From Laetmonice hystrix (lineage: Eukaryota): DNA of 64,000 nucleotides. Shown here piece by piece: positions 10,385 to 32,169 of this stretch; the first letter of the stretch is position 1; each line of letters starts with the position of its first letter. The translations under genes and the position numbers were made by a program. The notes below the pieces were generated by a model. The model searched no databases, was not told the origin of the DNA, and was given only the letters and a program-made list of their open reading frames with translations. The DNA is taken from NCBI GenBank assembly GCA_965235115.1, contig OZ249436.1, positions 23,004,001 to 23,068,000 on the forward strand, in the 5' to 3' direction.

Positions 10385-10754
10385 CCCTGACATTGATCGT
10401 TTCTCTGCCGATTTCGTAAAAATTAATATTTTTTGGGTCGAGTGCAACTGCTGAATTGTTTACAGCTAAACAAAGCACGTGACTAAGCACATGCAGAGAG
10501 TGCACACGCAGGATGTGACGCAGTATGCAAATACACGGGTTGATGGTAGGTTGTCTACCAAATTATGGCGAGAGATGTGCTATCGGGAGAAATCTATAGG
10601 TTTGGTCGTATAGAACCTACTTGTGCTGCATACGCAGCGAAAACACGTCGGAGGACAAAATGCTGTGGTAGGATTATTTACTTGGATCCCTAGTACACGG
10701 TCATGTTGGATAATTGCCGGAAATCCTCAAAAACGTGTTCCATAGCATGTCCCT
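10385..10754 (-). mobile_element. Truncated inverted copy of the Kolobok-type MITE at 32954-33481
   Basis: Reverse complement of about 32954-33335; ends CATAGCATGTCCCT|TTAA. Confidence 0.75.
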
Positions 10755-10759
10755 TTAAA

Positions 10760-11740
10760 GGTTCAATATTAGAGGTTCAATATGGAACCCCGAGAAAAGT
10801 TCAGAATGGAATCATTATTAAAGGTTCTCTCCAACAGGGAACCTTTATTTAAGGTTCTTCCGGGAACTTCAAACACTCAAAGAACCAATCCTCAGGGGTT
10901 CTATAAAGAATTTTTTGTCCACAATAGACATAAAATAAGCCAATACTGGATCTAAACTAGTTTAGAACCAGTTGGTGCGAACCTTATATGGCCTAGTGAA
11001 TTCAAACAGGTTCATTTGTATAAAAGTTCAAACGTCTGCAGCCTAAGCCAGCTACTTCGCCTGAAAATGTCGACTGTCTATACCAAGGAGTTTACATACG
11101 TCTTCTGGCCTGCAAAGATGGTGTTTCCTAGACAAATGTTGACGAATCACATTTCATAGGGGCCTAATTAAGCCACTATTTGACCTTCCACTCAACACCA
11201 TACGACAAAGAGTGTATTGATATTATTATTAATCTATGCCATGGTCGCATTAGCCGGCGTTCAAATATAGGCCCCTATATGACACGGTCAACTCGTGCTT
11301 GGCTATACTTGTATGGAACCCTTTTTTCTAGAAGAGTTCTACATGGAACCCTCAACATTTCAAAGAACCCTTAAAGAACGTATACATACTGGTTTTCCTA
11401 CGGGTTCCGCAAGGAATTCGAACTCTTCTACTGGGAACCTCGAACATTTTATATATAGTCAAAGTTATTTTAAATAATGCTTATCAGACTATAATAAGCA
11501 GGTCCTAAAGAACTAAAGAAAGGTTCAATGTGGAACTTTACCTTCTCTAACAGGAATCCTTTGGTTCTACGTGAAACCTAACTTTCCTTCAAGGAACCCT
11601 TCTCCCCCGTATAGAACCTTTTGGTTCCACGTGGAACCCAACTTTCCTACCAGGAACCCTTTTACCTCGTATAGAACCCCTTGGTTCCATGTGTAACTCC
11701 GAAGTTCAACAAAGAACCTCTAAGAACCCTTATTTCTAAG
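10760..11740. repeat. GAACC/GGTTC-rich dispersed repeat (CACTA/EnSpm-like non-autonomous element), uninterrupted paralogue of the LTR target
   Basis: 10920-11355 aligns with 13170-13503 joined to 23242-23325; dense GGAACC/GGTTC motifs. Confidence 0.6.
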
Positions 11741-13503
11741 TAGTTCAACCCCCTGGCCACATCATTGGCCAGAGTAGGTCCAAACACATGCCGCAATAAG
11801 GAGATTTCTTCTTCTTTTTTTTTCTTTTTTTTGGGGGGGGGGCAAGGCCCCCTTCCCCCCTGGATCCACCAATGCTATAAGCGTTTATGTTACCCCCCCC
11901 CCCCAATTATTCAGGGTCATTATTTTCGCATTTTGAAAATTGGCGAATTCTCCTAAAATGATGCCTCACACCCAAATCCAGCAGTTTCAACTTGTAAGAC
12001 ACTCAGATCCAGGTGAGGCACAACATTTCGCATCTAAAACCACCTCCAGACCTTTTGGCCTCGAAACTGCAAATAAACCCCCTGGCTCCCGGACTAATAC
12101 AACACGTCTGATTTCAGTCTTTCTCACTAGATGGCGTAGCAGCTTAAAATCTGTGCGCTGTGAGTCTTTTTTTTTATTATTTTTTTTTATATAATTTTTT
12201 ATTTTCCACACAAAAATAAGTTCACAACATACATGTACGATTCACATGTTTACAAAAAGGAAAATAAGGAACACACTTACGGGTAGGGCCTACACATACA
12301 GGACAGGACACTTCACGATTTACATATTGACAAAAACATAGGCCTACATTTACAGGTACACATACATGTATTTGGTAGCCCGCTCATTCTTTAACAACAT
12401 ACCTAGGATTACCAAAATAGTTCCCATTTTTTAACAAAACAACCTTTATACATATATCTCACAGCCTACAAGCCCGCATATCTATATAATTTTAGTTTTA
12501 TAATCTATTCCACATTACCCCCCACTTTTTAAGAAATCTCTGTATTTTGTTTGTATTTTTTGCTACTTCACTTTCTACCATTAATTCTCCTTTTAACCTT
12601 CTTTGGAAACCTCTAAGCTCTGGACTATATTCCTTTAGTTTACATCCATAAATATATGGTCAGAGTCGGGTATACTGCAGATGCGCACTCTTTCCCGACA
12701 GTATGCATTCTTGGCTGCCAGTCGATCCCAGGGGTGGATACAAGATTTATCAGCTGAGGGGGGGGGGAACTATTATTCAATTCTTGTAAAAAATTATACC
12801 ACTGCCTTATGCCCACAAAGCCCCCCCCCCCAACGGATCTGTCACTGAGTCATGTACACTCTCAGAAAAAAAAGTTCCAAGTAGAACCATTTAAGGTTCT
12901 TCAACTTATGTCTGTAGGAGAACCCTTAAGAGTTCTAAGAAGAACCATTTTAAAATGGTTCTATATAGAACCATGGAGGAAGGGTTCTGTAAAGAACCTT
13001 TTCAAAAGGGTTCTATATCACTAAAAAGGGTTCTGCCAGAGACATGAGTTGAAGAACCTTCTTATAGAACCCTTCCTCCGTGGTTCTATAAAGAACTCAA
13101 AAGGGAACCTTTATAAGGTTCTTCATAGGACCATTCCTCATGGTTCTATAGAGAACCATTTTATTTGTCTATAATAGACATAAAATAAACCAATAGCCCT
13201 ACTGATCTAAACTAGTTTAGAACCAGTATTAGTGCGAACCGGGCCTGGTTGTATAAAATTTCAAACGTCTGCAGCCTAAGCCAGCTACTCCGTCTGAAAA
13301 TATCGACTGTCTATACCAAGGAGTTAACATAAAGTCTTCTGGCCTCCAAAGATGGTGTTTTGTCGACAATGTTGATGAATCACACTTTATAATTAGGTCA
13401 CTATTTGACCTTCCACTCAACACCATATGACAAAGGCTGTATTAATATTATTATTAATTTATGCCATGGTCGCATTAGCCGGCGTTCACATGTAGGCCCC
13501 TAT

Positions 13504-13807
13504 TGTCATGGCCAGGTTTCCCCCGCGCCATGACAGTTCTATTTGTAATCTTAGGGACGGGACGTCCGTGCCCGTTTTATTACTTTGCCCCTATAAAACT
13601 GTCAATCAGTTCTTACCCCCACTTTTATATGTAAGGGCTACGGTGGTTGGCTACAACCGTAGCCCCAGGTTCTATATATACATATGTAGCCCGGTATGTA
13701 ATCAGTCTTGGACAGTAGTGGAGAGAGTCTTAAAGGAAAATAAAATAACATCGACCTGGAAGAACAGAGTTATCAGTTTGTCACAACCGTGGAACTTAGT
13801 CGTGACA
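13504..13807 (+). repeat. 5' LTR (304 bp)
   Basis: Identical by eye to 22934-23237; TG...CA ends; TATATATA near 13673; AATAAA near 13739. Confidence 0.97.
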
Positions 13808-13808
13808 T

Positions 13809-13822
13809 TGGTGGAAAACCCG
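13809..13822 (+). promoter_or_regulatory. Primer-binding site (possibly tRNA-Ala)
   Basis: TGGTGGAAAACCCG lies 1 nt after the 5' LTR; TGGTGGA is complementary to the ...UCCACCA 3' end typical of tRNA-Ala. The tRNA identity is tentative. Confidence 0.7.
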
Positions 13823-13844
13823 TGATCTATAAACAACCTCTCGT

Positions 13845-15410
13845 ATGCCGGTAGAGTTGCGACCAAGAAAGAACATTTCATATAAGCCCTCACGGCAAAC
13901 AGCCAAGATGGAGGACGAGCTTCTACAATTCGGAGAGGCAGCAGCACGGCGAGCACAAATCGGTTCGCCAGAGGACGACTACGAGACGGTGCGACCCCTG
14001 CGCCCCCGACCAATCTCCCCAGTCGTACAGGTGGTGCAACAAAGACCACCACAGACGCCACCACCTCCACCCTCTCCACCACCAACGGAATCAACGCAGG
14101 TGGAGATCTTTCAGAAAACCGTCCAGGAACTCACGAACAAAATGCAGCAACAACAAGATGCATTTCAACAAATGCAGTTGTTGCAGCAACAGACTCTCCA
14201 GGAGATGCAAAGACAAATGCAGCATCTCCTGCAAGCCTCCACGCCACAAGCAACCGCTCCAACACAACAACAACAACCAACGGTAGCCCCCACACAACAA
14301 CAACCAACAGTAGCCCCAGCACAAGACGTGCGAGTGGCTACACAACAGCAGCAAGGTGCATCAACAGCACCGCCCTCTCTATTAACACCACCCCCACCCC
14401 CACCCGCACAACAGCAACAACAACGGCAACAACAACCAGCACAACAACAGACCGTCACCGACCTGCAAACACAGGCTCAGCTTCTGGCGGCGCTGACGTC
14501 AAACTCAGCGAAAAAGTATATATCAGAGCCCGAAGTTTTCGCCAGACCAACTCCTAACAGAACGGGTGCCATTTTTCTGCGGGAGTACAAATCCTTTTTC
14601 TCCATTCTCTGCCCCAACAATAAGGAAGCTTTGTCAACAAGCTTCAAGAAATTCTTGGCTGGCCGAGCCAAGAATTGGTACTTAAACAATATTCAAGGTA
14701 AGCCAATTGCCACAGATTTCTCGACCATAGAAACATTGTTCCGGCAGTGGGCAGACAGAACCCAACAGGATCGGGAGGAGGAGGAATATGACCGCAGAAA
14801 ACAGGGCACACAGGAGACCGTCCAGGCGTACACAGACGCCATGGACGATCTTTTGGCCAACTCCAATTTGGACGAGGCACTGCGGGTCCGCATATACATC
14901 AATGGCCTGCGTCCTGATCTCCGTACCCTTGTGCGGGCGGAAAGCCCTCCAGATATGGCAGCAGCTGAGGCTGTCGCTAAACGGCACGAGCGGCAGCAAA
15001 AGTCGTATCTGGAAGCCTCTGGTCTGACAGCGTCTAATCTCCTGCAGACGCTCACGTCTGCCGGAGAAACTATTTCTGAAGCCGTCAGAAATATCCAAAG
15101 AGAGCGGCACCCTCAACAAGACAGACAACCCCGCCAACGGAGACAACGGCCTCCCTCAGACCAGCCTTGGGAATCTTCCCAAGATCAGCGCGATCAAAGA
15201 CAGCGACACCCGTCTCCGAGACCGCAGCAACAGCACAACCGCCCCCCGCAGTACGACAACCGCCGCAACCCCCCACACCAGTCGCCACGTGGCCACCAGC
15301 AGTTCGGCAGTAGAACACCACGATGGCCAAACACCACCCCCAACCAGCCAAGGTACAACCGTACCGACACCTATGGGCCACCGCCACAGTCGGGCCATTT
15401 AAACTGGTAG
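13845..15410 (+). CDS. gag: Gag (521 aa): Q/P-rich N-terminus, capsid-like core, R/Q/P-rich tail, no CCHC knuckle
   Basis: FLAGRAKNWY, RKQGTQETVQAY and IYINGLRPDLR are Ty3/Gypsy capsid-type motifs; lies directly after the PBS. Confidence 0.9.
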   Translation: MPVELRPRKNISYKPSRQTAKMEDELLQFGEAAARRAQIGSPEDDYETVRPLRPRPISPVVQVVQQRPPQTPPPPPSPPPTESTQVEIFQKTVQELTNKMQQQQDAFQQMQLLQQQTLQEMQRQMQHLLQASTPQATAPTQQQQPTVAPTQQQPTVAPAQDVRVATQQQQGASTAPPSLLTPPPPPPAQQQQQRQQQPAQQQTVTDLQTQAQLLAALTSNSAKKYISEPEVFARPTPNRTGAIFLREYKSFFSILCPNNKEALSTSFKKFLAGRAKNWYLNNIQGKPIATDFSTIETLFRQWADRTQQDREEEEYDRRKQGTQETVQAYTDAMDDLLANSNLDEALRVRIYINGLRPDLRTLVRAESPPDMAAAEAVAKRHERQQKSYLEASGLTASNLLQTLTSAGETISEAVRNIQRERHPQQDRQPRQRRQRPPSDQPWESSQDQRDQRQRHPSPRPQQQHNRPPQYDNRRNPPHQSPRGHQQFGSRTPRWPNTTPNQPRYNRTDTYGPPPQSGHLNW

Positions 15411-18400
15411 AGTGCGTGGATGGAGAGCCACATCCCCGTACTGACCAGCAGCATCGTAGAGACAATAAGCACACTGGGCGCGTCATCGTCAAGCCACCGG
15501 ACAACCAAGAGTCACCGCAGCAGAAAGGTAGGGGATTTTCTCTTCCCATTGAAAAAGGCTGCATTCCCTTAACAATAGGCCCTCTCCAAATACATTCGTT
15601 AGTGGATACAGGAGCGTCAGTCAGCTGTATAAAACCTAGTTTGGTTACAGCACTGATGAAGCTACCTGGGCGAATTTCCTTAAGGTCTTGTCAAACCAAA
15701 GTTTTCCTTGCAGATGGATCGTCACATATCTGCAAACGCAAAGTTTTTCTAAAATTTATGGTCGGCCCATACACCTTCAAACATGACTTTCTTGTAATCC
15801 CAATCGACAGAGCTGTCATTCTCGGCGTCGATCTTTTCAGAAAGCTCAGGGCCACAATCACATTCGATAATGATTACGACCCCCCATTACATACCATTCG
15901 CGCGCTTAAAGCCGTTTCTATTCCCCCTCTCACAGAAAGGACCATTTTTCAACCCGTTGTATCACACGTCAATATATCTGATACTGTAGGGGTCACAGAA
16001 AATGTGAAGAGAGCCAAACGTATTCCCTTGTTGGTAAAGAGAACACTGGTCAAACCTAATGATCGAAACCTTGTCCCAGTTACCATTCTCAATCTCTCGA
16101 CATCAGCATATAAGATCAAGAAAGGACAAGTTATTGCCTTGTACGTCAAGAAAGACGAAACTAATTTTACACCTTTGACAGACCAACCAACACAGTGTCA
16201 TTTACCAGGTAACAATATTTCTCCGCCATCCCCCTGTTCACATGACCGTGATACGGCTAGCGTATCACATCTGGTAGTGCCAGACAATGCAACATGTCAC
16301 GGCGTTTTTAAGGGAAAGATAGGCACAAAAACCATGGGTAAATTTACAGCTTTCTTTGGAGATATTTCCCCATTATCTAATTTGCATGTGTGTCAGTTCC
16401 ATGTCAGTGGAATGGCTTTTACGTCGGTTGAACAGTTTTTACAGTTCCGAAAAGCAAGGTATTATGGAAAGGAAGGTCTGGCATCACAAATTATGTCCAC
16501 CGATAGCCCCTTTACAGCTAGAAACATCGGTAAAGGAATCCGTACAGATGTCACCTGGTACGAAGAATCTATTGCAATTGTTAAAATTGGTTTATGGGCA
16601 AAGTTTTCCCAAAACTCCCATCTGTCTCACTTTCTAACCACACAAACAGCAGACACGCTTGTTCATGCGTGTAGAGATAAATTTTGGGGTGTAGGAATCT
16701 CTTTAAACAATATGGCAGTCTTCTCACCAGATCATTGGACTGGGCAGAACCTATTAGGTAAGGTACTAATGGACATTAAGCACCAGTTACGTAACAACCC
16801 TAACACACCCATTAGCGCAACCAGAGTAGCAGCTATTACTCGGTCGACTTGCGTACCGCCCCCAGTCCCTCAGGCAGAGGCCAATAAACCAGACAATGTC
16901 TGGGATATCTTTAAAGAGATAGCTAATGATGCAAACCCCATAGATAATCACACAAGCGAAAGTAAGCAATATTACATATCGGAGGACCTTACCATAGAAC
17001 AGAAAGCGGAACTTGAGTCTTTGCTGTCTGAATTCGATGACGTTTTTGTCGGTTCAGACAAACACCTTACAGGTACTCCCCTGTATAAACATTCAATCAC
17101 TTTGAAGGAAGGGTATATGCCTTGTAATAAGATGCCTTACAGGGCGGCGCCTCAGAAGCGCTATATTATGTCCAAATTATTAGAAGAGCAATGCAAACAG
17201 GGAATCATAGAAGAATGCACAGAACCAGGAGAATGGTCAAGCCCTGCTTTCCTCGTGGAAAAGGCTGGCTCAACGAAGGATAACCCCAAATACCGAGTGG
17301 TTCTCGATTTCAGAGGTCTGAACGAACAGATCAAAGACGTAGCTTTAAATTTCCCCCGGGCAGATGACACCTTAGCAATCGTTGGACAGGCAAAACCCCG
17401 CTATATCTCAAAATGTGACGCATTTTGTGGTTTCTACCAGATACCCCTCTCAAATGACAGCAAACCATACACGGCATTCACCACCCATGATAAAAGATAC
17501 CAATATCGTGTATTGCCAATGGGTTTGAAGACATCTCCCAAGGCATTTCAAAATCTGATGGAAATTTTAGTTAGAGAGCTCAAATACAAGAACTGCATGG
17601 CCTATATGGACGATTTAATCCTATGGGGAAATTCCTGGGAGGATCATCAACAAGCTCTCAGAGGACTACTCAAGGCCCTTATCAGGGGCAACATCAAACT
17701 CAGACGAGAGAAATGTTCCTTCGGTATGAAGTCCCTGCAGTTTCTGGGATACATCCTGGACGCGGAAGGCATTAGGCCCGATCCAGCCAAAGTTGAGGCA
17801 ATTCAGACATTTCCTGTCCCAAAATCTTTAAAACAGTTAAGATCATTTAATGGGTTAGCCCAAACATACAGGAAATTTATTAAAGGATTCGGATCAATCA
17901 TGCGCCCCCTATTCCAGTTAACACGGAAAGATGTCTCCTTTAAATGGGACGACAAGTGTCAACACGCCTTCGACTCCATCAAGAAGTGTATAACTACAGA
18001 TGTTGTTTTGCACCACCCAGATTTTGACAAGAAATTTACTTTGTCTACTGATGCTTCGAATTTTTCTTTGGGTTGTTGTCTTTCTCAAGAAGACCAGTAT
18101 GGATTTTTAAGACCTGTAGCCTTTGCAGGTAGATCTTTAACAAAACCTGAACAATCTTACTCAGCCACAGATAAGGAACTACTTGGTGTTATTTTCGCAT
18201 TAGAAAAGTTCCGTCCGTATCTTGAACTTCAGGAATTTGACGTTTATACAGATCATGCAGCCCTTCCAGCGCTTTTCAGAAAGAAAAACGCAACAGGTCG
18301 ACTTACTCGATGGTTGCATATAATTCAGGGATATAAAATCAATTGGAAACACATCAAAGGTAGTCTCAATGTTGTGCCCGATGCCCTAAGTAGAAGACAA

Positions 18401-20296
18401 TATGAACCATCATCAGATGATCACCCTCAATTACAAAACGTTCCGACAGAGTCAAAGCTAGGAGTCACATTCTCAGACATTTCTCATACATGGAAATACG
18501 ATTCTGAGTCAACCTATGTTCCAGGTCCCGTTATGGTTTTTAAACCAAAATCGATTTTATCAGGTGTAAATCACGAAAGCAACTGTTCAGCATGTAAGGA
18601 CCCAGAAGAGCCCAGTATAACAGTAGCAGCAATAACCAGAAGTATGACCAACAGAGACAAATCAATTAACACCCCCTCCCAGACCAAACCCACACTCACT
18701 GTAAAACCCCCCAAAGTTGCCCGAGGCAAAGCTCACAACAGACGTGAGAAAGCCCGCCCGCACGTCACGGCCAGTGCACAGGAAGCGATCGAGGCGTTGC
18801 TCAAGGTACCACACCTAGCACCCAGTGCACAGCAGGTAGCCGATGAGCAGCGTAAAGACGCTTTCTGTCGTGCAATGCTCGATTTTCTGGAGGAAGGAAA
18901 AATCCCAGAGGACAATGTCATGGCACGCCATCTACTTTTACAGCAAGACAATTTTATTGTTGTCGATTCTATTTTGTTTCACATGTCGTCGGATTTATTT
19001 GCGAAATTCAGCAAACTATCTGCTCAGGTTGTTATACCTGATGTGTGGATACAAGATATCTTGCGGTCGTACCATGACACTCCTTTGGCAGGACATCAAG
19101 GGTTCATGAAGATGTTGTCAGTTATAAAACCTCGTTTTTACTGGCCCACAATGAACAAGGACGCTAGGGATTATGTCAGCACTTGCCATTCATGTCTTCA
19201 GTCGAAACATCCCAATCGCAAGGCGGTCCCTCCCATGACCCTTAGATCCCCATCCTCCAGGCCTTTCGAAACTATTTCTATTGACAGCGTGGGGCCAATT
19301 CACACCTCGGCCCGCCAAATGAGGTATATCCACGTTGTTGTCGACTATTGCACGCGTTATGTCATCGCATGGGTCACCAAGTCCATCGATGCGGCAACTA
19401 CAGCTCGGGAACTGTTTAACAATGTAATCTGTGTATATGGTGTTCCAAGTACCATATGCTCAGATAATGGTCCAGCATATACAGAAAACATCTTCAAACA
19501 AGCCTGTAAACAATTCGGGATTAAACAAGTTTTTGGTAGCCCGTATCATCCACAATCACAAGGATTAGTGGAGAGGGCAAATCAAACCATCGTCACCAGT
19601 TTAAGAACCTTTGTCGACAAGGAACAGAACAACTGGGATCTGTATGTTCCAGCCCTTGTTTTTGCATACAATATTAGTGACACATATGCTCTAGGTTACA
19701 GCCCCTTTATGTTACTTTTTGGGAGAGCAGCAAGCACTCCGTCAGAAACCCAGCTTCCCTCTTTTGACAAGGAAACAAGGACAGTTAAGGATGCTTTACT
19801 TGACATTGTGCAAACCCAGAAAAACATCACAGAAAAAGCAGTCGAACGTCTGATTGAAACTCACGATATCATGAAAGACAGAAGGGATATCAGAGCAAAG
19901 GTACCTGCCATTGCACCAGGTGACCTCTGTTACTTATATATGCCATATCGCCTCCTCCCCAAAACCTCCCGCAAACTTCAACCCCATTTCCTTGGCCCAT
20001 GTCTCGTCACAGCCCAAACCTCCCCAGTGACGTTCAAACTACGCCGTCTCTCAGACAATAGGGACATAAAGCAATCGGTGCACATTGAGAGACTGAAGAA
20101 AGTACCACCCACAAGCAGTGACCGATTCCTTAAAAGACTAATTGTCAACCCCACAGCCTATTCCAGCCCCATTGAAGCGGCAATAAAACAACCCCTCAGC
20201 AAACGGGACAGAAAACTTATATCAGGTGCTAAGTCGCGAAAAGGACAATGCCACACGAAAACAAAGCGGCATTCCCGCGTGGGAAGTCGGGCGTAA
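15323..20296 (+). CDS. pol: Pol (probably entered by -1 frameshift near 15404): protease, dUTPase-like remnant, NADAR, RT, RNase H, integrase
   Basis: LVDTGAS (15605); NADAR 16343-16792; YMDD (17603); TDAS...KELLGV...TDH...DALSR; H..H..CHSC; SIDSVGP, SDNGPAY, GLVERAN; GPY/F-like FLGPC. The ORF is uninterrupted. Confidence 0.96.
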   Translation: MAKHHPQPAKVQPYRHLWATATVGPFKLVECVDGEPHPRTDQQHRRDNKHTGRVIVKPPDNQESPQQKGRGFSLPIEKGCIPLTIGPLQIHSLVDTGASVSCIKPSLVTALMKLPGRISLRSCQTKVFLADGSSHICKRKVFLKFMVGPYTFKHDFLVIPIDRAVILGVDLFRKLRATITFDNDYDPPLHTIRALKAVSIPPLTERTIFQPVVSHVNISDTVGVTENVKRAKRIPLLVKRTLVKPNDRNLVPVTILNLSTSAYKIKKGQVIALYVKKDETNFTPLTDQPTQCHLPGNNISPPSPCSHDRDTASVSHLVVPDNATCHGVFKGKIGTKTMGKFTAFFGDISPLSNLHVCQFHVSGMAFTSVEQFLQFRKARYYGKEGLASQIMSTDSPFTARNIGKGIRTDVTWYEESIAIVKIGLWAKFSQNSHLSHFLTTQTADTLVHACRDKFWGVGISLNNMAVFSPDHWTGQNLLGKVLMDIKHQLRNNPNTPISATRVAAITRSTCVPPPVPQAEANKPDNVWDIFKEIANDANPIDNHTSESKQYYISEDLTIEQKAELESLLSEFDDVFVGSDKHLTGTPLYKHSITLKEGYMPCNKMPYRAAPQKRYIMSKLLEEQCKQGIIEECTEPGEWSSPAFLVEKAGSTKDNPKYRVVLDFRGLNEQIKDVALNFPRADDTLAIVGQAKPRYISKCDAFCGFYQIPLSNDSKPYTAFTTHDKRYQYRVLPMGLKTSPKAFQNLMEILVRELKYKNCMAYMDDLILWGNSWEDHQQALRGLLKALIRGNIKLRREKCSFGMKSLQFLGYILDAEGIRPDPAKVEAIQTFPVPKSLKQLRSFNGLAQTYRKFIKGFGSIMRPLFQLTRKDVSFKWDDKCQHAFDSIKKCITTDVVLHHPDFDKKFTLSTDASNFSLGCCLSQEDQYGFLRPVAFAGRSLTKPEQSYSATDKELLGVIFALEKFRPYLELQEFDVYTDHAALPALFRKKNATGRLTRWLHIIQGYKINWKHIKGSLNVVPDALSRRQYEPSSDDHPQLQNVPTESKLGVTFSDISHTWKYDSESTYVPGPVMVFKPKSILSGVNHESNCSACKDPEEPSITVAAITRSMTNRDKSINTPSQTKPTLTVKPPKVARGKAHNRREKARPHVTASAQEAIEALLKVPHLAPSAQQVADEQRKDAFCRAMLDFLEEGKIPEDNVMARHLLLQQDNFIVVDSILFHMSSDLFAKFSKLSAQVVIPDVWIQDILRSYHDTPLAGHQGFMKMLSVIKPRFYWPTMNKDARDYVSTCHSCLQSKHPNRKAVPPMTLRSPSSRPFETISIDSVGPIHTSARQMRYIHVVVDYCTRYVIAWVTKSIDAATTARELFNNVICVYGVPSTICSDNGPAYTENIFKQACKQFGIKQVFGSPYHPQSQGLVERANQTIVTSLRTFVDKEQNNWDLYVPALVFAYNISDTYALGYSPFMLLFGRAASTPSETQLPSFDKETRTVKDALLDIVQTQKNITEKAVERLIETHDIMKDRRDIRAKVPAIAPGDLCYLYMPYRLLPKTSRKLQPHFLGPCLVTAQTSPVTFKLRRLSDNRDIKQSVHIERLKKVPPTSSDRFLKRLIVNPTAYSSPIEAAIKQPLSKRDRKLISGAKSRKGQCHTKTKRHSRVGSRA
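15398..15442 (+). promoter_or_regulatory. -1 programmed ribosomal frameshift signal
   Basis: T_TTA_AAC in the gag frame (15398-15404), 6-nt spacer, then stem-loop AGTGCG(T)GGATG-8 nt-CATCC(C)CGTACT (15411-15442); pol is in the -1 frame. Confidence 0.85.
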
Positions 20297-22920
20297 CTCT
20301 ATATGAGACCCCACCCCCAACTGTGCCGTACAGGTATTAACAAAACATTAGCGCATCAGCCAACCCTTATATACACACGTTTACGAGTCTGCACAGAGGG
20401 TGCATGACGATTTGCCTTTTTTTTACAGCGGCTCCGGCTGTTTCCCGCAAGTGGCTTTCCTCAATGGTATATATAACAAGTGGCTCACTGTATAGGATTA
20501 GAAGGACGCTATAAAAGCGCAATTTTGGGTGCAGTAAGCACTCCAGGTAGTCTAAGATTTGCTACCTACTTGTGTCAATGGACGCTCATTTCTGACCGGT
20601 CTTTTTACGAACTACCTATTTTTTATTACTGGATCCACAATAGCACAGGGCGGTAGTCACACGAATTTTTCAGCTTAATGACCAGTCGCGACATACCACA
20701 TCTGTGAGTTTGTTCCTTTTTTTTACGACCCTATGTTTAACACCTTGCCTGTAATTTTCACGTCGGGAATGGAAATACCCCCGTGATGAGCATTCCTTGG
20801 GACTAGAGCTCAGTCTTCTGGGAAAATATCGCTCAATTTCCTTACTGGCCAATAGCAAGCCATGACACATCGGAGGGAAGGCCACCCACCTGTGTATTGT
20901 TTGCCTTTATAGGGTTACGGGAGAAAGAACCCATGGCAGATCTCTGTGGAGATTTTGCACTGACAAAAAGTCAGACGGCAAGTGTGCACACACTTTGTTT
21001 ACAATCGCCCGCTATTTGTGGAATGAGCAGGATGCATCCAGTTCTAAGGTATGTTCCTATATGCAACCATGCAGTCACACATGTGCACCTCTGTGTCTGC
21101 TTATATATATATATTTTTTTTTTGGTGATTATATAACTTTACAAGTTATTGTTGAGCGCCGATATAGGCTTATATTTTTGCTGAACCTCATGCTCATATA
21201 CAGTGTTATATGTCATACACGTGTTACACGTAGGTCAGTAGCTTATATATTTTTTTTCTATGTGTTCTCGAAGAACCGAAGGATTTTATTTTGAAGTATC
21301 AGAAAACGCTATATTTGTTATTAATGCTGCGATACTAGCGGAAACAATCAGCTTGCTGACGGTAATGTCGTCGTTTTTTTTCTCTCTATCCCTCTGCAAG
21401 GTTAAGCATGAGGTTATTTAAGCGAGGTAAACGATTATTGAAAAGGAGTTGTATGCATTTTTTTTCTCTCCTTCTTCCCGCGTGTTATAGGCTGATCTCG
21501 CTCCTATTGCTGACGATGGGATGCACGTTCTACATTTTCACATAATTTTAGGATGATAATTTATTGTGTATACATAATAGTGTATCGACGCGAGTGACAG
21601 TCCTGTTTCCCTAAGTCCCATTTCCCCATTATTGGTACTTAGCAGCCTTTTTCTGGGAATAGAATCACCCCAGCCTTATAAGGTGTTGTTATAGCTACAG
21701 TTATCTTATTTGTTTGGCATGCATGATGTTTTCTATTTCTGACAGCGCTAACTGAGGAGGCCTATACGCCAGAAGTACAGACCCCCAACCGCGCGCATCA
21801 GCATGGCCTTCCCCGCAACATTAGTCCGTAGAGGTTTTTGCGAACCACAAGTACTTACTGTACTTCTTTATAATTATAGTAACGAAGGTTTTTGGTTTTG
21901 AGTTTTGAACATAACCCGATAGTGTGTTTTGTTGTATCTTTTTTTTATGCCATGTCGTTTTGTGTAACTGCCTTGTGGCATCGTATTGTTTAAGTTTGAA
22001 AGTTACATGTAGATTATAAACCCGTATTATTTTGTAAGGTACAGGAGGATTGTAATTGGTTACTAGTACACATTATATATCACCGGCGCCAGGCTCACGC
22101 TGAGTGTGTAGACTATATGTAAGGGTATCCTTCCCACACGTCATTAAGTTGTCCACCTTAAGTGTATGTGGAATATGCGATTGTCCATACGTCAGTCAGA
22201 CGATAGTGTACCTTTTCTTTTTGTTTATGTGTATTAATCATGTCATTATCACCAATACATACTTACGAGTATTACAACCCAGTTAAGGGACAACTGTTTT
22301 CTTTATAGAGGAGGAAAAGCCCCAGGGCAATAAAACCCCTTCTCACTATTGTTCGTAACCGCAATGTACACGTGAGCAGGGTCATTATTATCTCATTTGC
22401 ACCTATTCCCCGATTGAGTTTAGGGTACCTTTTGAAACCTCCAATCACTGTAAGTAATGTATGGACTGTATAGTAATCAGAGGAACATATGGTTACTCAC
22501 TGTGTCTACAGAGAAGTAATGTAGTATATAAAGAAAAATATCCAGGTTCGAATTCCAAGGCAATAGAACATAACCTTCATTGATGGTTGTACCTTAAGAC
22601 TAGTATAGCCAGTCAGTAATTCTATTTATAAATGGTATTTTCCCATGGAACGGATTAAGCATGTATATGTTAAATGTTTCTTTTTCTCGTGGCCCACAAT
22701 TGGTGTCCAAGCGATCAGTGTCAAATCCGTTGGTATTTTATTTCTATGCGATATACTTGTTTCAGTTTCTTAGGGAGATAATTACGTTGTATTAAGTCTT
22801 ATACCATGAATCCATGTCCGTCTTTTACCAAAGAGCCATTGAGGCATACTCTATTTTTTTATTTTTATGCGTGTAATTGTAGTAGATTTTAAGTTTGATC
22901 CCGGAGGATCTAGTCTTCCT

Positions 22921-22933
22921 AGGGAGGGGATGA
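22921..22933 (+). promoter_or_regulatory. Polypurine tract
   Basis: AGGGAGGGGATGA immediately precedes the 3' LTR. Confidence 0.85.
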
Positions 22934-23237
22934 TGTCATGGCCAGGTTTCCCCCGCGCCATGACAGTTCTATTTGTAATCTTAGGGACGGGACGTCCGTG
23001 CCCGTTTTATTACTTTGCCCCTATAAAACTGTCAATCAGTTCTTACCCCCACTTTTATATGTAAGGGCTACGGTGGTTGGCTACAACCGTAGCCCCAGGT
23101 TCTATATATACATATGTAGCCCGGTATGTAATCAGTCTTGGACAGTAGTGGAGAGAGTCTTAAAGGAAAATAAAATAACATCGACCTGGAAGAACAGAGT
23201 TATCAGTTTGTCACAACCGTGGAACTTAGTCGTGACA
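22934..23237 (+). repeat. 3' LTR (304 bp)
   Basis: Identical by eye to the 5' LTR; followed by the CTAT TSD. Confidence 0.97.
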
Positions 23238-24766
23238 CTATGACATGTTGGGGTAGAGAGTCAACTCCTGCTTGGCTACTTTTATGGAACCCTTTTTTTC
23301 TGGAAGAGTTCTACATGGAACCCTCTAACGCTCTATAGAACCCTTTTGAAAAGGTTCTTTACGGAACCCTTCCTCAGAAATTAGCTCTCATATCTTGTGT
23401 TCCAAAGAACCATATACATTTGTATTATGTTTTGGAACCATGGACAGTTCTTTCAAGACCCTGTAAAAACCCTTTTCCGGTAACGGTTCTGTATGGAACC
23501 ATCAGCATTTCTAAAGAACTCCCTCTCCTGAAAGGGTTCCGTATGGAACCCTCAAGATTTCTAAAGAACCATGGTGGAACCATTTTTCTTGAACGGTTCT
23601 GTATGGAACCATCAGCATTTCTATAAAAAAAAAACCTCCCCTGAAAGGGTTCTGTATGGAACCCTCCAGATTTCTAAAGAACCATGATAGAACCATTTTT
23701 CTTGAACGGTTCTGTATGGAACCATCAACTTTTTCAAGGAACCCTTTTTCCTGAAAGGGTTCTACATGGAACCATCCACATTTCCAAAGAACCCTCGTAG
23801 AACCCTCATTAGGCCTATAGGCCTAGGCTTATAAGGCCGGCTTAAATTCATATCCTTGCCCCCGTGCACGTCCCCCCTGCTGATGTCCCCCCCATGAACC
23901 TGGATCCGTGCCTGCTTTGCAATGCCTTTTGACATCATAACATGCGCACTCAGATTGTCCGAATGGTGGGATAAGAGTGTGCATAAATTTTCATATTCTT
24001 GACTTTGCGTTCAATTTTGAAAAAAAGTTTTAAATGTATGACATTCATATGCCGACCTTACCCTATTCAGAGGGGGGGGGGGGGGGGGTCCAGCATAAAA
24101 AGGGCAAATCTATAGGAGGGTCCGTTGTAAAAAAAATAAGGCATTTTGGTTATAAAAAGTGAAATTTGGGAAATTTGAGGGTGGGGTGGGGGGGGGGGGG
24201 GGGTCCGGACGTCGCTGATACCCCCCCCCCCCCGGACGCGGCACTGTTCCCCCCCCACCCCACCCCGGCGCAGCACAACTCATTAGATCTATATCTTCTG
24301 TCCACACTCTTGCATTTTTTTGGGGTCGGGGGGCCCTGACCCCCCCCCCCCCCCCCCCCCCCCCCCGTCGGTGTTACTGCCGCCAGGGGCGGCGGATCCA
24401 TGCAGAACGGGGGGTGCTGAGGGGGCACAGTCAGAAGAGGGCGGCCTATATAATAGTAGGCCTAATCCACATGGCATATCGCTTGGGCCTGCTCGGAGAT
24501 GTGAATGGGCGTAGTCAGGGATGTAAACTTGGGCGCAGTCAGGGATGCGGCTGTCGGACGCCACTCCTCACTACGGCCCACCAGTAAGCGGCATAGATCT
24601 CCAGGCCTACAAACACCACAATCTGAAAAAGTATTAACGTGGGACAACTTAGTAGGTCACAGAATAGCAGCCGTCATTTATGTAAGTAAATTTATACAGT
24701 TATTTAAACATGTCATGCGCTCCAACCGTGGCGTGGGCGTGTTTTTGACTCGGGCTAGGCTGCTTA

Positions 24767-25371
24767 TAGCCAAAGAATTCGGCTCTGTGCTCTGTACAGA
24801 GCCGAAGATCGCTGTTCAGAATTTCCGAGCGTACCCGGACAAATCTTCTGTCTGCCATGAAAAGCCCTCCCTTGTCTCTATATGTTGATGAAATAGTGAT
24901 AAATAAACTCAAAATAACTTATCTCTCATATCTGCAAGCTGGAAAAGCACGATGCGACAAAATAAAGACAGTCACATCTCTTGAACCGAGAAATTTCAAT
25001 GCTCGTTGAGTGCCGCCATTACCGTCGGAGACACTTTCCAACGCAGAGCTACTTCCGCTTCGCTTTCGCTTCACACAGTAGTAAGCGAGTCTCTGCGTAG
25101 GAGAGTGTCGGAGAGATGCATGCTGGGATCAAAGGCAACATGGCGGCCGGTAAAACGCCGTTAAACGGGTGATCTAGACATGAATTTGACGTTGTACTAT
25201 TAAAAACACTGCTTCATGACCCCACACACTTACTGTCGAGATAAATGGATGCCGGTGAGTTGATCAGTGCAAGCGGTGGTGGTCTGGCCTGGGTGTGGTC
25301 TGGCCCGCCAGGAATTTAAGCCATTGCCTGTAAGCCTTGTTGGCTCGGCACAAGGCTTACTACGTAGGCTA
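24767..25371 (+). mobile_element. Non-autonomous AcademH-like element, copy 1
   Basis: Termini TAGCC...GGCTA; perfect 9-bp TSD GGCTGCTTA; a hairpin just inside each end; near-identical inverted copy at 49315-49921. Confidence 0.8.
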
Positions 25372-25445
25372 GGCTGCTTATAATGAGCGATAATACAAAT
25401 TACAATGTTTCATGTTTGAGAGTGGGACTGGGAGGGACTGGGCAG

Positions 25446-29587: not shown

Positions 29588-29767
29588 TTAAGGCTTTAAA
29601 GGTAAACTCTATTGAACTCTAAAAATTGAACGAACGAGCGGCTAGGGGGCTCACCGCTGTACCGAGGGCTGCGACCATGGGAACACCATTACACCATTTG
29701 GGATTCCCTGCCTGAAAAAGTCTATAAGGGTCGCAAACAAAAATTCGCCGAGAACGAACTGAAGGCT

Positions 29768-31516
29768 GTGAGGCTGTGGACTGATGGTGTTTTCTGTTGG
29801 TTGCAGGGGGTGGGAGTGAGGCTGTGGACTGAGGGTGTTTTCTGTTGGTTGCAGGGGGTGGGAGTGAGGCTGTGGACTGAGGGTGTTTTCTGTTTGTTGT
29901 AGGAGGTGGGAGTGAGGCTGTGGACTGATGGTGTTGTCTGTACAGGAGGTGGGAGTGAGGCTGTGGACTGATGGTGTTGTCTGTACAGGAGGTGGGAGTG
30001 AGGCTGTGGACTGATGGTGTTGTCTGTTTGTTGTAGGAGGTGGGAGTGAGGCTGTGGACTGATGGTGTTTTCTGTTTGTTGTAGGAGGTGGGAGTGAGGC
30101 TGTGGACTGATGGTGTTTTCTGTTTGTTGTAGGAGGTGGGAGTGAGGCTGTGGACTGATGGTGTTTTCTGTTTGTTGTAGGAGGTGGGAGTGAGGCTGTG
30201 GACTGATGGTGTTTTCTGTTTGTTGTAGGAGGTGGGAGTGAGGCTGTGGACTGAGGGTGTTTTCTGTTGGTTGCAGGGGGTGGGAGTGAGGCTGTGGATT
30301 GATGGTGTTTTCTGTTTGTTGTAGGAGGTGGGAGTGAGGCTGTGGATTGATGGTGTTTTCTGTTTGTTGTAGGAGGTGGGAGTGAGGCTGTGGACTGAGG
30401 GTGTTTTCTGTTGGTTGCAGGGGGTGGGAGTGAGGCTTGGATTGATGGTGTTTTCTGTTTGTTGTAGGAGGTGGGAGTGAGGCTGTGGATTGATGGTGTT
30501 TTCTGTTTGTTGTAGGAGGTGGGAGTGAGGCTGTGGACTGATGGTGTTGTCTGTACAGGAGGTGGGAGTGAGGCTGTGGACTGATGGTGTTGTCTGTACA
30601 GGAGGTGGGAGTGAGGCTGTGGACTGATGGTGTTGTCTGTACAGGAGGTGGGAGTGAGGCTGTGGACTGATGGTGTTGTCTGTACAGGAGGTGGGAGTGA
30701 GGCTGTGGACTGATGGTGTTGTCTGTTTGTTGTAGGAGGTGGGAGTGAGGCTGTGGACTGATGGTGTTTTCTGTTTGTTGTAGGAGGTGGGAGTGAGGCT
30801 GTGGACTGATGGTGTTTTCTGTTTGTTGTAGGAGGTGGGAGTGAGGCTGTGGACTGATGGTGTTTTCTGTTTGTTGTAGGAGGTGGGAGTGAGGCTGTGG
30901 ACTGATGGTGTTTTCTGTTTGTTGTAGGAGGTGGGAGTGAGGCTGTGGACTGATGGTGTTGTCTGTACAGGAGGTGGGAGTGAGGCTGTGGACTGATGGT
31001 GTTGTCTGTACAGGAGGTGGGAGTGAGGCTGTGGACTGATGGTGTTGTCTGTACAGGAGGTGGGAGTGAGGCTGTGGACTGATGGTGTTGTCTGTACAGG
31101 AGGTGGGAGTGAGGCTGTGGACTGATGGTGTTGTCTGTACAGGAGGTGGGAGTGAGGCTGTGGACTGATGGTGTTGTCTGTTTGTTGTAGGAGGTGGGAG
31201 TGAGGCTGTGGACTGATGGTGTTTTCTGTTTGTTGTAGGAGGTGGGAGTGAGGCTGTGGACTGATGGTGTTTTCTGTTTGTTGTAGGAGGTGGGAGTGAG
31301 GCTGTGGACTGATGGTGTTGTCTGTACAGGAGGTGGGAGTGAGGCTGTGGACTGATGGTGTTTTCTGTTTGTTGTAGGAGGTGGGAGTGAGGCTGTGGAC
31401 TGATGGTGTTTTCTGTTTGTTGTAGGAGGTGGGAGTGAGGCTGTGGACTGATGGTGTTGTCTGTACAGGAGGTGGGAGTGAGGCTGTGGATTGATGGTGT
31501 TGTCTGTTTGTTGCAG
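29768..31516. repeat. Minisatellite of about 38 units of 48/43 bp
   Basis: Units GTGAGGCTGTGGACTGATGGTGTTTTCTGTTTGTTGTAGGAGGTGGGA (48 bp) and ...GGTGTTGTCTGTACAGGAGGTGGGA (43 bp). Confidence 0.95.
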
Positions 31517-31549
31517 GTGGTGAACTTGAAAGGTTAGGGCTGTGGACCA

Positions 31550-31660
31550 ATGGCGTTGTCAGGTGGGCATGAAACAACAGTGGTGGGAGGACTGTACTTC
31601 ACCAAGTTCAAAGAAGGTCATTGGAAATCAGGATCTCCTCTGCCATCAGTCCTCTTGAAG
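31550..31660 (+). CDS. LAS2: LAS2/C18orf54-like host gene, coding exon 1 (exon starts at 31517)
   Basis: Acceptor TTGTTGCAG at 31516; in-frame TAG upstream of the ATG; donor AAG|GTCAGT, phase 0. Confidence 0.6.
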
Positions 31661-31886
31661 GTCAGTGTCACTCTCTTTATTGTTAAAAATAAAACCTGCA
31701 TAATGGACGAAAGTCACAAGGAGATACTGCTGGCTGTGTTAGACATGACATGTTATTGTTAGAGCTACTGGTTCATGTGTTATCTGCCAACCATTTGAAC
31801 TGATTAGCTTTTCCATAACAGACAGGATCCAGAAATTCCCAGTAAATGGGTAGATATACTCATTGATTGATTAACCTTCGCTTCAG

Positions 31887-32169
31887 AACAAGGAGTACTT
31901 GTCAGCCAGCGCTGCACTTGACACCTACATCCACGAGTATGAGGGCCACCCCTTGGACGTCAGAGGTGAGGTGGGCCAGACTGAGGCTGTGGAGGACCTC
32001 CTCCTGCGCAGACCTCCAGGGATGACCCTGGAGGGATTGACCAGGCTGGGATCCACGGACAGGCTCCCACTCCAGTGGCTCTCTTCCCTCAACAGGCTGG
32101 TCGATGAAGTGTATGAGCACCAAGAGGTCCACCCTAGTAGGCCTGGCCACGATAGTGCACCACCTGGAG
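31887..32169 (+). CDS. LAS2: LAS2/C18orf54-like host gene, coding exon 2
   Basis: CTTCAG| acceptor; K|NKEYLSASAALDTYI resembles the LAS2 motif KDKLYRSASQALQAYI as I recall it; phase-1 donor G|GTAACA. Confidence 0.7.

Follow-up and report, generated by a model that had tools for sequence, protein, structure and literature searches.

NADAR proteins have one well-documented activity, the removal of ADP-ribose from guanine in nucleic acids, which places them on a bacterial axis of defense and counter-defense (PMC11125620, PMC11543638). The closest precedents for a NADAR inside a retroelement are described in PMC12477816 (2025), the one paper that our literature search found to link this domain with transposable elements, which reports a YbiA-family NADAR in the Gypsy Pol of the brown alga Ectocarpus and a NADAR in Tx1 ORF1 of Crassostrea gigas. 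Among phages, the His-type NADAR AdfN of T4 is described as an active DNA ADP-ribosylglycohydrolase and counter-defense factor (PMC11825919), and the Pacific oyster nidovirus PONV1 is reported to have NADAR, YbiA-like and Macro domains (PMC12377751).

Here we describe a Ty3/Gypsy retrotransposon that encodes a NADAR domain inside Pol, found in a 64,000-nucleotide stretch of the Laetmonice hystrix genome (the window). The fusion is real and rare but not unprecedented, given the Ectocarpus Gypsy elements and oyster LINEs (PMC12477816). As described for Ectocarpus, the NADAR is in frame, lies in the N-terminal part of Pol and is conserved across families of one lineage. The host, however, belongs to another kingdom; the Ectocarpus NADARs reportedly retrieved nearly only bacterial matches, whereas the nearest relatives of the present domain are animal LINE ORF1 NADARs; and the present domain has His in place of the Glu of the YbiA type reported for the alga (PMC12477816). 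We infer that the two Gypsy NADARs were acquired independently.

The domain is common to a second retroelement class, represented by LINEs of this genome and by the C. gigas Tx1 elements, in which it occupies the C terminus of a ~450-aa ORF1 rather than the interior of Pol; the LINE fusions are high-copy, against seven Gypsy copies. The LINEs here are recognized by APE+RT(+zf-RVT), and the Tx1 label is taken from PMC12477816. T4 gp30.3/AdfN resembles our domain in being encoded by a mobile element, in having His at the YbiA Glu position and in keeping the equivalents of E and K (PMC11825919, PMC11125620), but it is described as a stand-alone DNA-phage protein acting against DarTG1. The NADAR of DarT1-NADAR (DarTG1) systems shares the fold and the conserved ADP-ribose-contacting E and K; it differs in having Asp at the catalytic position where the present domain has His, and in place of its K115, reported to be required for DarT1 rescue, the present domain has Arg (PMC11543638). 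Rescue from DarT1 toxicity in E. coli is no general mark of activity, for YbiA and the phage NADAR reportedly do not give it although they are active in vitro (PMC11125620). Invertebrate nidoviruses (PONV1, PMC12377751; yellow head/gill-associated virus) are likewise RNA-templated parasites whose replication polyprotein contains a NADAR, although they are RNA viruses with an RdRp and not retroelements, and their structural match to our domain (TMq 0.70–0.71) indicates fold-level similarity only.

Architecture of the Gypsy element

The element occupies positions 13504–23237 of the window and is a complete Ty3/Gypsy LTR retrotransposon of 9,734 bp with a NADAR-bearing Pol; it and all of its features lie on the + strand. 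It combines two 304-bp LTRs with TG...CA ends (13504–13807 and 22934–23237), a CTAT target duplication found just upstream of the 5' LTR and again after the 3' LTR, a candidate primer-binding site read from the sequence (TGGTGGAAAACCCGTGATC, 13809–13827), which begins with TGG 1 nt past the LTR, a purine-rich tract that we take as the PPT (GGGAGGGGATGA, 22922–22933) and the order PR-RT-RNase H-IN. As the earlier note had claimed, the LTRs are 100% identical and the gag and pol frames of the window copy are uninterrupted; this is a structurally intact, very young insertion.

The gag ORF (13845–15410) runs from ATG to stop, has a Q/P-rich N-terminal half and gives no Pfam match; its C-terminal half has 67.6% nucleotide identity to family B, the second NADAR-bearing family of this genome. 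The pol ORF (15314–20296, 1,660 codons from stop to stop) is in frame -1 relative to gag. A heptamer typical of -1 ribosomal frameshifting (15398–15404), which reads T TTA AAC in frame with gag, ends 3 nt ahead of the gag stop codon (15408–15410), and UUUAAAC is present at the gag/pol overlap in all three elements checked (the window copy, copy A2, or L031, and family B, L032), which suggests that Pol is produced by -1 frameshifting at this site.

Along the pol frame, Pfam matches follow the order aspartyl protease, NADAR, RVT_1, RNase H, integrase and SH3. The protease (Pol 85–176; 15566–15841) matches Asp_protease_2 with E = 1.7e-4, under the Pfam curated cut-off, and the family B counterpart is clearer (RVP, E = 6.6e-6). 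Pol ~292–558 (16187–16987) is an insertion relative to NADAR-less Gypsy relatives and consists of the NADAR core and two disordered linkers. The NADAR fold itself, delimited by Pfam and by the ordered core of an AlphaFold2 model, spans Pol 336–496 (16319–16801), with the Pfam match at Pol 352–493, and encloses the 16343–16792 interval first singled out. It is followed by reverse transcriptase (Pol 655–815; 17276–17758; RVT_1, E = 4.8e-28), RNase H (Pol 878–1007; 17945–18334; RT_RNaseH/RT_RNaseH_2, E ~1e-33), integrase (Pol 1242–1413; 19037–19552; zinc-binding H2C2 and rve core, E = 2.4e-19 and 7.8e-16) and an SH3-like integrase C-terminal domain (Pol 1536–1597; 19919–20104; SH3_Tf2-1, 6.4e-5, under the cut-off). 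An exact 7-mer, VAAITRS, occurs twice in Pol, at the NADAR|RT boundary in the low-pLDDT linker directly after NADAR (Pol 505–511; 16826–16846) and between RNase H and integrase (Pol 1104–1110; 18623–18643); the family B counterpart of the second copy is SVNVITRSM. We regard VAAITRS as a candidate protease cleavage site.

Between pol and the 3' LTR lies a 2.6-kb tail (20297–22933) that has no long ORFs and ends in the purine-rich tract. It is native to the family: in the copy on contig C8 its two halves are present, at 92% and 88% identity, on either side of a 2.7-kb insertion. An env-like third ORF in the tail was considered and rejected, as the tail of the window copy has no ORF longer than 142 aa. 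The C8 copy does have a 487-aa ORF, but this ORF falls within the 2.7-kb insertion, which is specific to the C8 element, and it gives no match in Pfam.

At the flanks, a contig record joins 13503 to 23239 in three of three DNA-type runs (one sample and study), and it also differs downstream, with 35 other letters in place of 23325–23330. This record may represent an allele without the element or a paralog of the repeat in the flank; because the runs may come from the sample used for the assembly, it does not count as independent evidence of polymorphism.

Identity and active site of the NADAR domain

The motif series that the earlier note had read in 16343–16792 (+) agrees exactly with the translation, and the profile comparison that it had proposed places this translation in the NADAR family (Pfam PF08719; E = 1.6e-31; 110.2 bits, the curated cut-off being 35.1; profile positions 11–163 of 163). 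The AlphaFold2 model of the domain has a mean pLDDT of 97.7 and superposes on known NADARs: the only two of 115 Foldseek matches against the PDB at E<=0.001 are the Phytophthora NADAR with bound ADP-ribose (8bau; TMq 0.83, E = 5.6e-9) and E. coli YbiA (2b3w; TMq 0.77, E = 8.3e-7). The extra domain of Pol is a NADAR. When the insertion was modeled, a 158-residue core reached pLDDT>=90 between flanks at pLDDT<50; the model thus predicts a compact core between low-confidence linkers, that is, one extra globular domain between protease and RT.

Active-site residues were mapped by HMMER alignment to 8bau onto the residue list given in PMC11543638. Seven of the 8bau positions are kept: E43 (E30 here), K50 (K37), G78, D86, W89, D130 (D112) and W133 (W115). 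Two carry conservative replacements (K75->R, R79->K), and two are altered (E125->H108, R93->S). In a 63-sequence NADAR alignment, the domain of family A, to which the window copy belongs, retains 21 of the 21 columns that are invariant or at least 90% conserved. E30 and K37, which do not vary in any of the 30 copies examined in this genome, are the equivalents of the ADP-ribose-contacting Glu and Lys described as E43/K50 of P. nicotianae NADAR and E88/K95 of E. coli C7 NADAR (PMC11543638).

At the E125 position, NADARs of the YbiA type are described as having Glu, those associated with DarT1 Asp and those of the phage gp30.3 type His (PMC11543638, PMC11125620). With H108, family A has the residue of the phage gp30.3/AdfN type and neither the Glu of the YbiA subfamily nor the Asp of BC4488/DarT1-associated proteins. 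The independent relative P0026 likewise has His at this position and Asp at the D112 position, and His is found in 8 of the 24 LINE-borne NADARs examined in this genome. An earlier caution, that LVH in place of the usual LVE might mean altered activity, can therefore be set aside: LVH is no sign of decay, because His is the normal state in active phage NADARs as they are described. In trees built without named phage sequences, animal TE NADARs with His are intermixed with those that have Glu; with His inside the animal TE clade beside Glu variants, the His state is probably convergent between phage and animal TE NADARs.

In all three copies of family B, Tyr stands in place of H108, and D112, otherwise invariant, is replaced by Gly. 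The family B copy on contig C7 nevertheless has open gag and pol frames and LTRs that are identical over 181 comparable nt. This family lacks two active-site residues yet seems to have been recently active, so canonical catalysis may be dispensable. For the Gypsy NADAR as a whole, the predicted catalytic activity and substrate would be hydrolysis of ADP-ribosyl(guanine).

Copies, acquisition and selection

A genome-wide RT search (1,582 candidates, 115 scored matches) placed NADAR-bearing Gypsy elements in two families, A with four copies and B with three; the remainder of the 115 scored matches are NADAR-less Gypsy elements. Independent loci with the NADAR insertion lie on contigs C1, C8, C4, C11, C7 and C3. 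Copy A2, on C8, has 96.6% nucleotide identity to the window copy and a pol of 1,649 codons, and the family B copy on C7 has a pol of 1,667 codons with the order PR-NADAR-RT-RH-IN unchanged. The frame is uninterrupted in three of three full-length NADAR-bearing copies, and the in-frame domain is conserved across families A and B. Conservation in two diverged Gypsy families means that the NADAR is no one-copy accident, and it bears out the earlier proposal that the domain is propagated by retrotransposition. NADAR-less Gypsy elements prevail, so Gypsy elements can evidently thrive in this host without the domain.

A ~220-aa insertion with NADAR is common to families A and B and missing in their next-nearest Gypsy relatives. 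By RT, the closest relatives without NADAR (L040 and L041) show 65% and 46% identity, and tblastn of Pol 1–760 leaves these two just 33–47 codons at the place where family A has 227–268. In NADAR trees, the Gypsy domains group together as a single clade (SH-like support 99 with 214 rows; SH-aLRT 99 with 84 rows). The absence of the insertion from the next-nearest relatives argues for a single acquisition and points to a gain in the common ancestor of A and B. The sister group of the Gypsy clade has support 84 in FastTree and is a polytomy in IQ-TREE, in unrooted trees from which the direction of transfer is not readable. LINE ORF1 NADARs are the nearest relatives of the Gypsy domain (30–41% identity), and the most likely source is the LINE ORF1 NADAR pool of the same animal lineage.

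Between families A and B, the NADAR has a saturated pS of 0.87 and a pN of 0.31; between copies A1 and A2, its dN/dS is 0.18, a value resting on 10 substitutions (4 non-synonymous, 6 synonymous), and that of whole pol is 0.225. Between the two families, pN thus lies far below pS. By region, the A versus B pN of the linkers (0.26–0.30) and protease (0.25) is about equal to that of NADAR, which is three times that of RT, RNase H or IN (0.10–0.11). Within the best explanation of these sequence comparisons, the NADAR in Gypsy Pol is maintained by selection since its acquisition.

NADAR domains elsewhere and the search for transferases

Of 642 first-look NADAR candidates in the genome, at least 150 are scored matches. 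Most of these are in ORF1 of APE+RT LINEs, and 147 of the 150 fall outside the pol frames of the three full-length Gypsy copies. The LINE NADARs conserve E30, K37, W72 and W115 in 24 of 24 copies and include both Glu and His variants. The earlier note had not mentioned these ORF1-NADAR fusions of the same genome.

An exhaustive search of a representative protein set with the NADAR domain gave 8,597 matches at E<=0.001. Among Pol-sized proteins, none of 88 candidates had a similar NADAR at E<=0.001; a search for longer relatives returned 10 matches in 165 candidates, and precomputed Pfam annotation lists neither an RT nor an integrase family for any of the 10; and neither RT nor IN occurs in any of 29 Pfam-scanned proteins (28 of at least 509 aa within the best 150, plus P0026). 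Eukaryotic TE proteins seem scarce in the representative set, so this null result says little on other animals. The domain does occur in other fusions: P0120 has a NADAR within a polyvalent protein of the ArdC type, together with an ArdC N-terminal domain, a zincin-like peptidase and Toprim, and P0011, P0013 and P0273 are RNase H+NADAR proteins. Viral structural neighbors of the NADAR model include ronivirus and nido-like replicases.

For host ADP-ribosyltransferases (ARTs), the Pfam families Enterotoxin_a, ADPrib_exo_Tox and DarT (PF14487) had no match in the whole genome, but 14 control genomes were equally silent, which makes this result uninformative. The scanned window ORFs included no ART family, and no DarT is adjacent to the NADAR, a further difference from DarTG1. 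A literature search for CARP-1/pierisin in oysters returned nothing useful.

Discussion

With moderate confidence, we favor the explanation that a recent Gypsy element carries a His-type NADAR, gained once from the LINE pool and kept by selection, which hydrolyzes ADP-ribose inside the particle. Gag-Pol would be made through -1 frameshifting at UUUAAAC and packaged in the virus-like particle, the element's protease would cut VAAITRS-like sites flanking RT-RNase H, and the NADAR-containing product would stay within the particle. There it would hydrolyze ADP-ribose from nucleic-acid bases on element RNA, tRNA primer or cDNA. Unremoved adducts would block reverse transcription or integration, whether they came from a dedicated host defense or from ordinary cellular ADP-ribosylation. 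In this scheme, the packaging, the cleavage, the catalytic activity and its substrate are predictions. Accessory enzymes fixed in retroelement polyproteins usually signal a host-cell threat to replication, and retroviral dUTPase and viral macrodomains are accessory nucleic-acid 'hygiene' enzymes of viral polyproteins. The Gypsy NADAR would resemble them, by analogy only, as an extra Pol or replicase enzyme that shields replication intermediates from damaging modification, although their folds and chemistry are unrelated to NADAR. The best-documented NADAR substrate is guanine N2 ADP-ribose (PMC11125620, PMC11543638).

A more specific counter-defense is a less likely reading: a host pierisin/CARP-1-type transferase would mark guanines of retroelement and viral nucleic acids, and the Gypsy, LINE and nidovirus NADARs would be parallel countermeasures. 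ADP-ribose that ScARP (pierisin-type) or DarT1 has placed on guanine N2 is reported to be removed by NADARs (PMC11125620, PMC11543638), counter-defense is described as proven for a His-type phage NADAR (PMC11825919) and six edible clams are reported to have guanine-specific DNA ARTs (PMC11209040). CARP-1 is a clam enzyme of this guanine-specific kind. Against this stands the absence of an ART match in the window or genome, although the controls of the genome-wide family searches were just as silent. That two unrelated retroelement classes of one genome bear NADAR is in keeping with such a defense, as are the domain set of the oyster nidovirus (PMC12377751), the ronivirus and nido-like neighbors and the ArdC-type protein P0120; NADAR-less Gypsy families, however, greatly outnumber NADAR-bearing ones, and family B seems recently active without H108 and D112.

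It seems to us unlikely that this extends to a general rule, in which molluscan-type hosts would have an innate defense that ADP-ribosylates the bases of foreign or reverse-transcribed nucleic acid, with CARP-1/pierisin-like guanine transferases as candidate enzymes, and three kinds of genetic parasites would have recruited NADAR independently as an antidote, LINEs in ORF1, Gypsy elements in Pol and nidoviruses in their replicases. If it were true, NADAR-bearing parasites and their hosts would form a eukaryotic counterpart of DarT1 versus phage AdfN. Together, the Gypsy NADAR, the hundreds of LINE ORF1 NADARs in this genome and the oyster nidovirus make anti-retroelement or antiviral nucleic-acid ADP-ribosylation in invertebrates a directly testable question.

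We think it quite unlikely that the NADAR counters no defense and instead serves RNA processing, with an RNA end or an RNA-linked NAD/ADP-ribose metabolite as its target (such as tRNA-splicing products or NAD/ADP-ribose-capped ends) for the handling of genomic RNA or the tRNA primer. The LINE NADAR is located in ORF1, the RNA-binding component of LINEs, and RNase H+NADAR fusions exist. This hypothesis is given in PMC12477816 for RNA-virus, Ectocarpus and C. gigas NADARs, but the passages of the literature on which we draw name no RNA substrate for any NADAR, and the measured activities that they report are all on base-linked ADP-ribose in DNA oligonucleotides.

It is highly improbable that the fold is retained solely for nucleic-acid or ADP-ribose binding, or as a spacer, with hydrolysis no longer needed. 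Family A and P0026 keep both H and D, E30 and K37 are invariant in every copy compared and family A keeps all of the conserved superfamily columns; what speaks for a non-catalytic module is the His->Tyr and Asp->Gly changes of the young-looking family B elements and a linker pN equal to that of NADAR. A neutral passenger or artefact without a role, be it a domain captured recently by accident or a chimera of the assembly, is scarcely credible despite the low copy number of the NADAR-bearing families, because it is already contradicted by the copies at independent loci, by a pN far below a saturated pS for the same insertion in two families and by frames that are open in every full-length copy.

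Structure of the element and identity of its NADAR domain

The Ty3/Gypsy retrotransposon at window positions 13504–23237 is a structurally complete and very recent insertion of 9,734 bp, since its long terminal repeats (LTRs; 13504–13807 and 22934–23237, 304 bp each, TG..CA ends) are 100% identical, CTAT flanks both of their outer sides, a candidate primer-binding site starting TGG lies 1 nt after the 5′ LTR, a purine tract (by sequence reading) adjoins the 3′ LTR, and gag and pol are both open. All of these features are on the + strand. The gag frame, upstream of pol, runs from the ATG at 13845 to the stop at 15410 and gave zero matches in a Pfam scan. The pol frame (15314–20296, 1660 codons) is in the −1 frame relative to gag, and a heptamer, T TTA AAC, lies in gag register at 15398–15404, with 3 nt between it and the stop codon of gag (15408–15410); it is also found at the gag/pol overlap of both other full-length elements examined. 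Pfam places protease at Pol residues 85–176, NADAR at 352–493, reverse transcriptase (RT) at 655–815, RNase H at 878–1007, integrase at 1242–1413 and SH3 at 1536–1597, in agreement with the earlier note, which had described identical LTRs, uninterrupted ORFs and a NADAR domain in frame between protease and RT.

The domain assignment, proposed there from sequence alone, is borne out by profile and structure. Translation of 16343–16792 (+) gives the same 150 residues that the note quoted. Their match to the Pfam NADAR profile (PF08719) has E 1.6e-31 and spans profile positions 11–163 of 163; it scores 110.2 bits, where the curated cut-off is 35.1. An AlphaFold2 model built from a 63-sequence alignment has a mean pLDDT of 97.7, and none of the 150 residues falls below 90. 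Foldseek returned 115 PDB matches at E ≤ 10, only two of them at E ≤ 0.001 and both NADARs: the Phytophthora nicotianae protein with ADP-ribose (8bau; TMq 0.83, E 5.6e-9) and Escherichia coli YbiA (2b3w; TMq 0.77). Among predicted viral structures, 50 matches reached E ≤ 0.001, including phage and giant-virus NADARs as well as yellow head, gill-associated and nido-like virus replicases.

The insertion point coincides exactly with the end (13503) of the second copy of a direct repeat of ~260 bp (11016–11278 and 13249–13503, 88% identity), which makes the flank repetitive. In contigs from three runs of a single sample, 13503 is joined straight to 23239, with the element absent; the contig record carrying this joint also differs downstream, 23325–23330 being replaced by 35 letters, and the joint could reflect either an allele that lacks the insertion or a paralogue of the flanking repeat. 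A second, low-depth joint (16341/22759) leaves out 6417 bases, beginning 2 nt ahead of the NADAR start given in the note (16343) and reaching nearly to the 3′ LTR; the joint is weak, with just 26 letters on its shorter side, but it may mark an internally deleted derivative.

Two Gypsy families share a lineage-specific insertion

A search of the 627-Mb genome with the NADAR segment gave 642 first-look candidates, and all 150 that were scored matched (E 2.7e-100 to 8.1e-16). Six of 30 fetched loci are Gypsy elements: in family A, the window copy, a copy on contig C8 (98% identity) and a degenerate copy on C11 (88%); in family B, three copies at 53–54%. The C8 copy has a 1649-codon pol and 96.6% nucleotide identity to window 13504–21526, and in the family B copy on C7 pol has 1667 codons and the same domain order from protease to integrase, and the LTRs are identical over the 181 nt available for comparison. 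With full-length pol frames in the window, C8 and C7 copies and NADAR in both families, the domain is being propagated, as had been suggested, rather than being an oddity of one copy.

When 115 of 1582 candidates from an RT–RNase H search were scored, family A was found at four places and family B at three, followed by one relative at 65% identity, one at 46% and then a mass of elements at 35–40%. In the 65% relative, segments homologous to Pol 233–328 and 555–758 are only 100 nt apart, and in the 46% relative those homologous to Pol 68–291 and 559–759 are only 142 nt apart; Pol residues ~292–558 are thus an insertion that sets the A+B clade apart. The predicted structure of this insert has a compact core (Pol 336–496, 158 residues at pLDDT ≥ 90) between linkers below 50. 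Pol contains two exact copies of the heptapeptide VAAITRS, at 505–511, 12 residues after the NADAR core, and at 1104–1110, between RNase H and integrase; family B reads STVATIASS and SVNVITRSM, respectively, at the same two places. We infer that the pair are candidate protease sites bracketing RT–RNase H.

Between pol and the 3′ LTR lies a 2.6-kb tail (20297–22933, +) without any ORF longer than 142 aa. It is native to family A: the C8 copy has both halves (92% and 88% identity), split by a private 2.7-kb insertion; the family B tail is about 1.8 kb. That private insertion holds a 487-codon ORF (L031, 513–1973, −) with no match in a Pfam scan.

The domain is related to LINE ORF1 NADARs

In the remaining 24 fetched loci, NADAR lies at the C-terminus of ORFs of ~450 aa in intact copies. 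It was the sole Pfam match in four of four such ORFs scanned, and the downstream ORFs matched Exo_endo_phos and RVT_1 in three of three (zf-RVT in one), identifying these loci, by domain content, as LINE ORF1–NADAR fusions, a type described for Crassostrea gigas from its Tx1 families in Repbase (PMC12477816). The 642 first-look candidates point to hundreds of LINEs in this genome with a ~450-aa ORF1 ending in NADAR and then an APE+RT ORF2 (for example, L036 1083–5784, L037 1059–6747 and L038 3959–8875, −), and 116 full-length homologues of one such ORF1 are present in the protein database searched.

A FastTree phylogeny covering 214 NADAR domains unites the Gypsy sequences and a database relative, P0026, in a single clade (support 99), and this clade falls within ORF1-type sequences, LINEs of the same genome among them, at support 84. 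An 84-row IQ-TREE set, from which multi-domain proteins and the degenerate copy L003 were excluded and for which 48 of the database rows then remaining were drawn at random, recovered the clade (99 SH-aLRT) with a polytomy of ORF1-type sequences as sister. The Gypsy NADARs group together in both trees; a single acquisition by Gypsy is well supported, and capture from the LINE pool would be the parsimonious direction.

Within the text retrieved by our literature search, PMC12477816 alone links NADAR to transposable elements, so NADAR–retroelement fusion as such has precedent. What is new is an animal Gypsy lineage with a His-type NADAR between protease and RT, and its kinship with animal LINE NADARs, unlike the Ectocarpus Gypsy NADARs, for which bacterial relatives are reported (PMC12477816). 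The finding bears on an open question and is testable.

Other architectures were seen among database proteins. The only informatively named close relative (names in one of seven clusters) is P0014 of the abalone Haliotis rufescens, 4240 aa with seven tandem NADARs; P0089 (3063 aa) carries two NADARs and a C5 DNA methylase, and P0011, P0013 and P0273, each ~316 aa long, combine RNase H with NADAR.

Constraint and active-site residues

Non-synonymous divergence (pN) between families A and B is 0.31 in NADAR, 0.25 in protease and 0.26–0.30 in the linkers, versus 0.10 in RT and 0.11 in both RNase H and integrase, against a saturated pS of 0.87. Two family A copies differ in NADAR by four non-synonymous and six synonymous changes (dN/dS 0.18; whole pol, 0.225). 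By these measures, the domain is clearly under constraint and not neutral, yet more loosely held than the core enzymes.

We mapped the residues listed in PMC11543638 (section 12) through a HMMER alignment to 8bau. P. nicotianae E43, K50, D130 and W133 correspond to E30, K37, D112 and W115 here; G78, D86 and W89 are likewise Gly, Asp and Trp; and K75 is Arg, R79 Lys, R93 Ser and E125 His108. Family A keeps 21 of 21 columns that are invariant or at least 90% conserved in the 63-sequence NADAR alignment. The E125 position discriminates subfamilies, being Glu in NADARs of the YbiA type, Asp in those associated with DarT1 and His in those of the phage gp30.3 type (PMC11543638, PMC11125620). It is His in all three family A copies, in P0026 (58% identity) and in eight of 24 LINE copies, the other 16 having Glu; all 24 have Asp at the D112 position. 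All three family B copies combine Tyr at the E125 position with Gly at the D112 position. The earlier note was right that LVH places His at a usual Glu, but its suggestion of altered activity falls away: phage gp30.3/AdfN shares this His with family A, and T4 AdfN, which has DNA ADP-ribosylglycohydrolase activity, neutralises DarTG1 (PMC11825919), so by analogy His108 would be no argument for inactivity.

Possible functions

The reading that we favour, by a modest degree of belief, is that a functional NADAR hydrolase, carried into the particle within Gag-Pol, would there clear ADP-ribose from element nucleic acids. Its more specific version, a possible counter-defence role, is attractive but strikes us as rather doubtful. 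In its favour, NADARs undo precisely the N2-guanine adduct of pierisin/ScARP-type enzymes, which are present in clams (PMC11209040), and the domain is found both in retroelements (LINEs and Gypsy elements) and in an oyster nidovirus (PMC12377751), as well as in the ArdC-type polyvalent protein P0120 (ArdC N-terminal domain, zincin-like peptidase, Toprim). However, our searches, themselves uninformative on this point, found no transferase, the genome is dominated by NADAR-less Gypsy elements, and family B looks young despite its altered active-site residues. RNA processing, the function proposed for transposable-element NADARs (PMC12477816), seems improbable, and a non-catalytic role more improbable still. 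A neutral passenger or artefact is contradicted by the intact frames of full-length copies, the A–B divergence pattern and the several genomic places.

Other features of the window

Two long open frames, 38448–40757 (+, 769 codons) and 41006–43141 (+, 711 codons), had no match in a Pfam scan and may be part of a mobile element of unclassified type. At 29619–31598 (−), three minus-strand frames are all open for ~600 codons, with a GC skew of 0.59 at 30001–32000; rather than a gene, the stretch is probably a G-rich repeat of low complexity. Two inverted pairs, of 608 bp (24767–25372 versus 49921–49314, 97.7%) and 321 bp (10438–10758 versus 33270–32950, 94.1%), are other interspersed repeats of the window.
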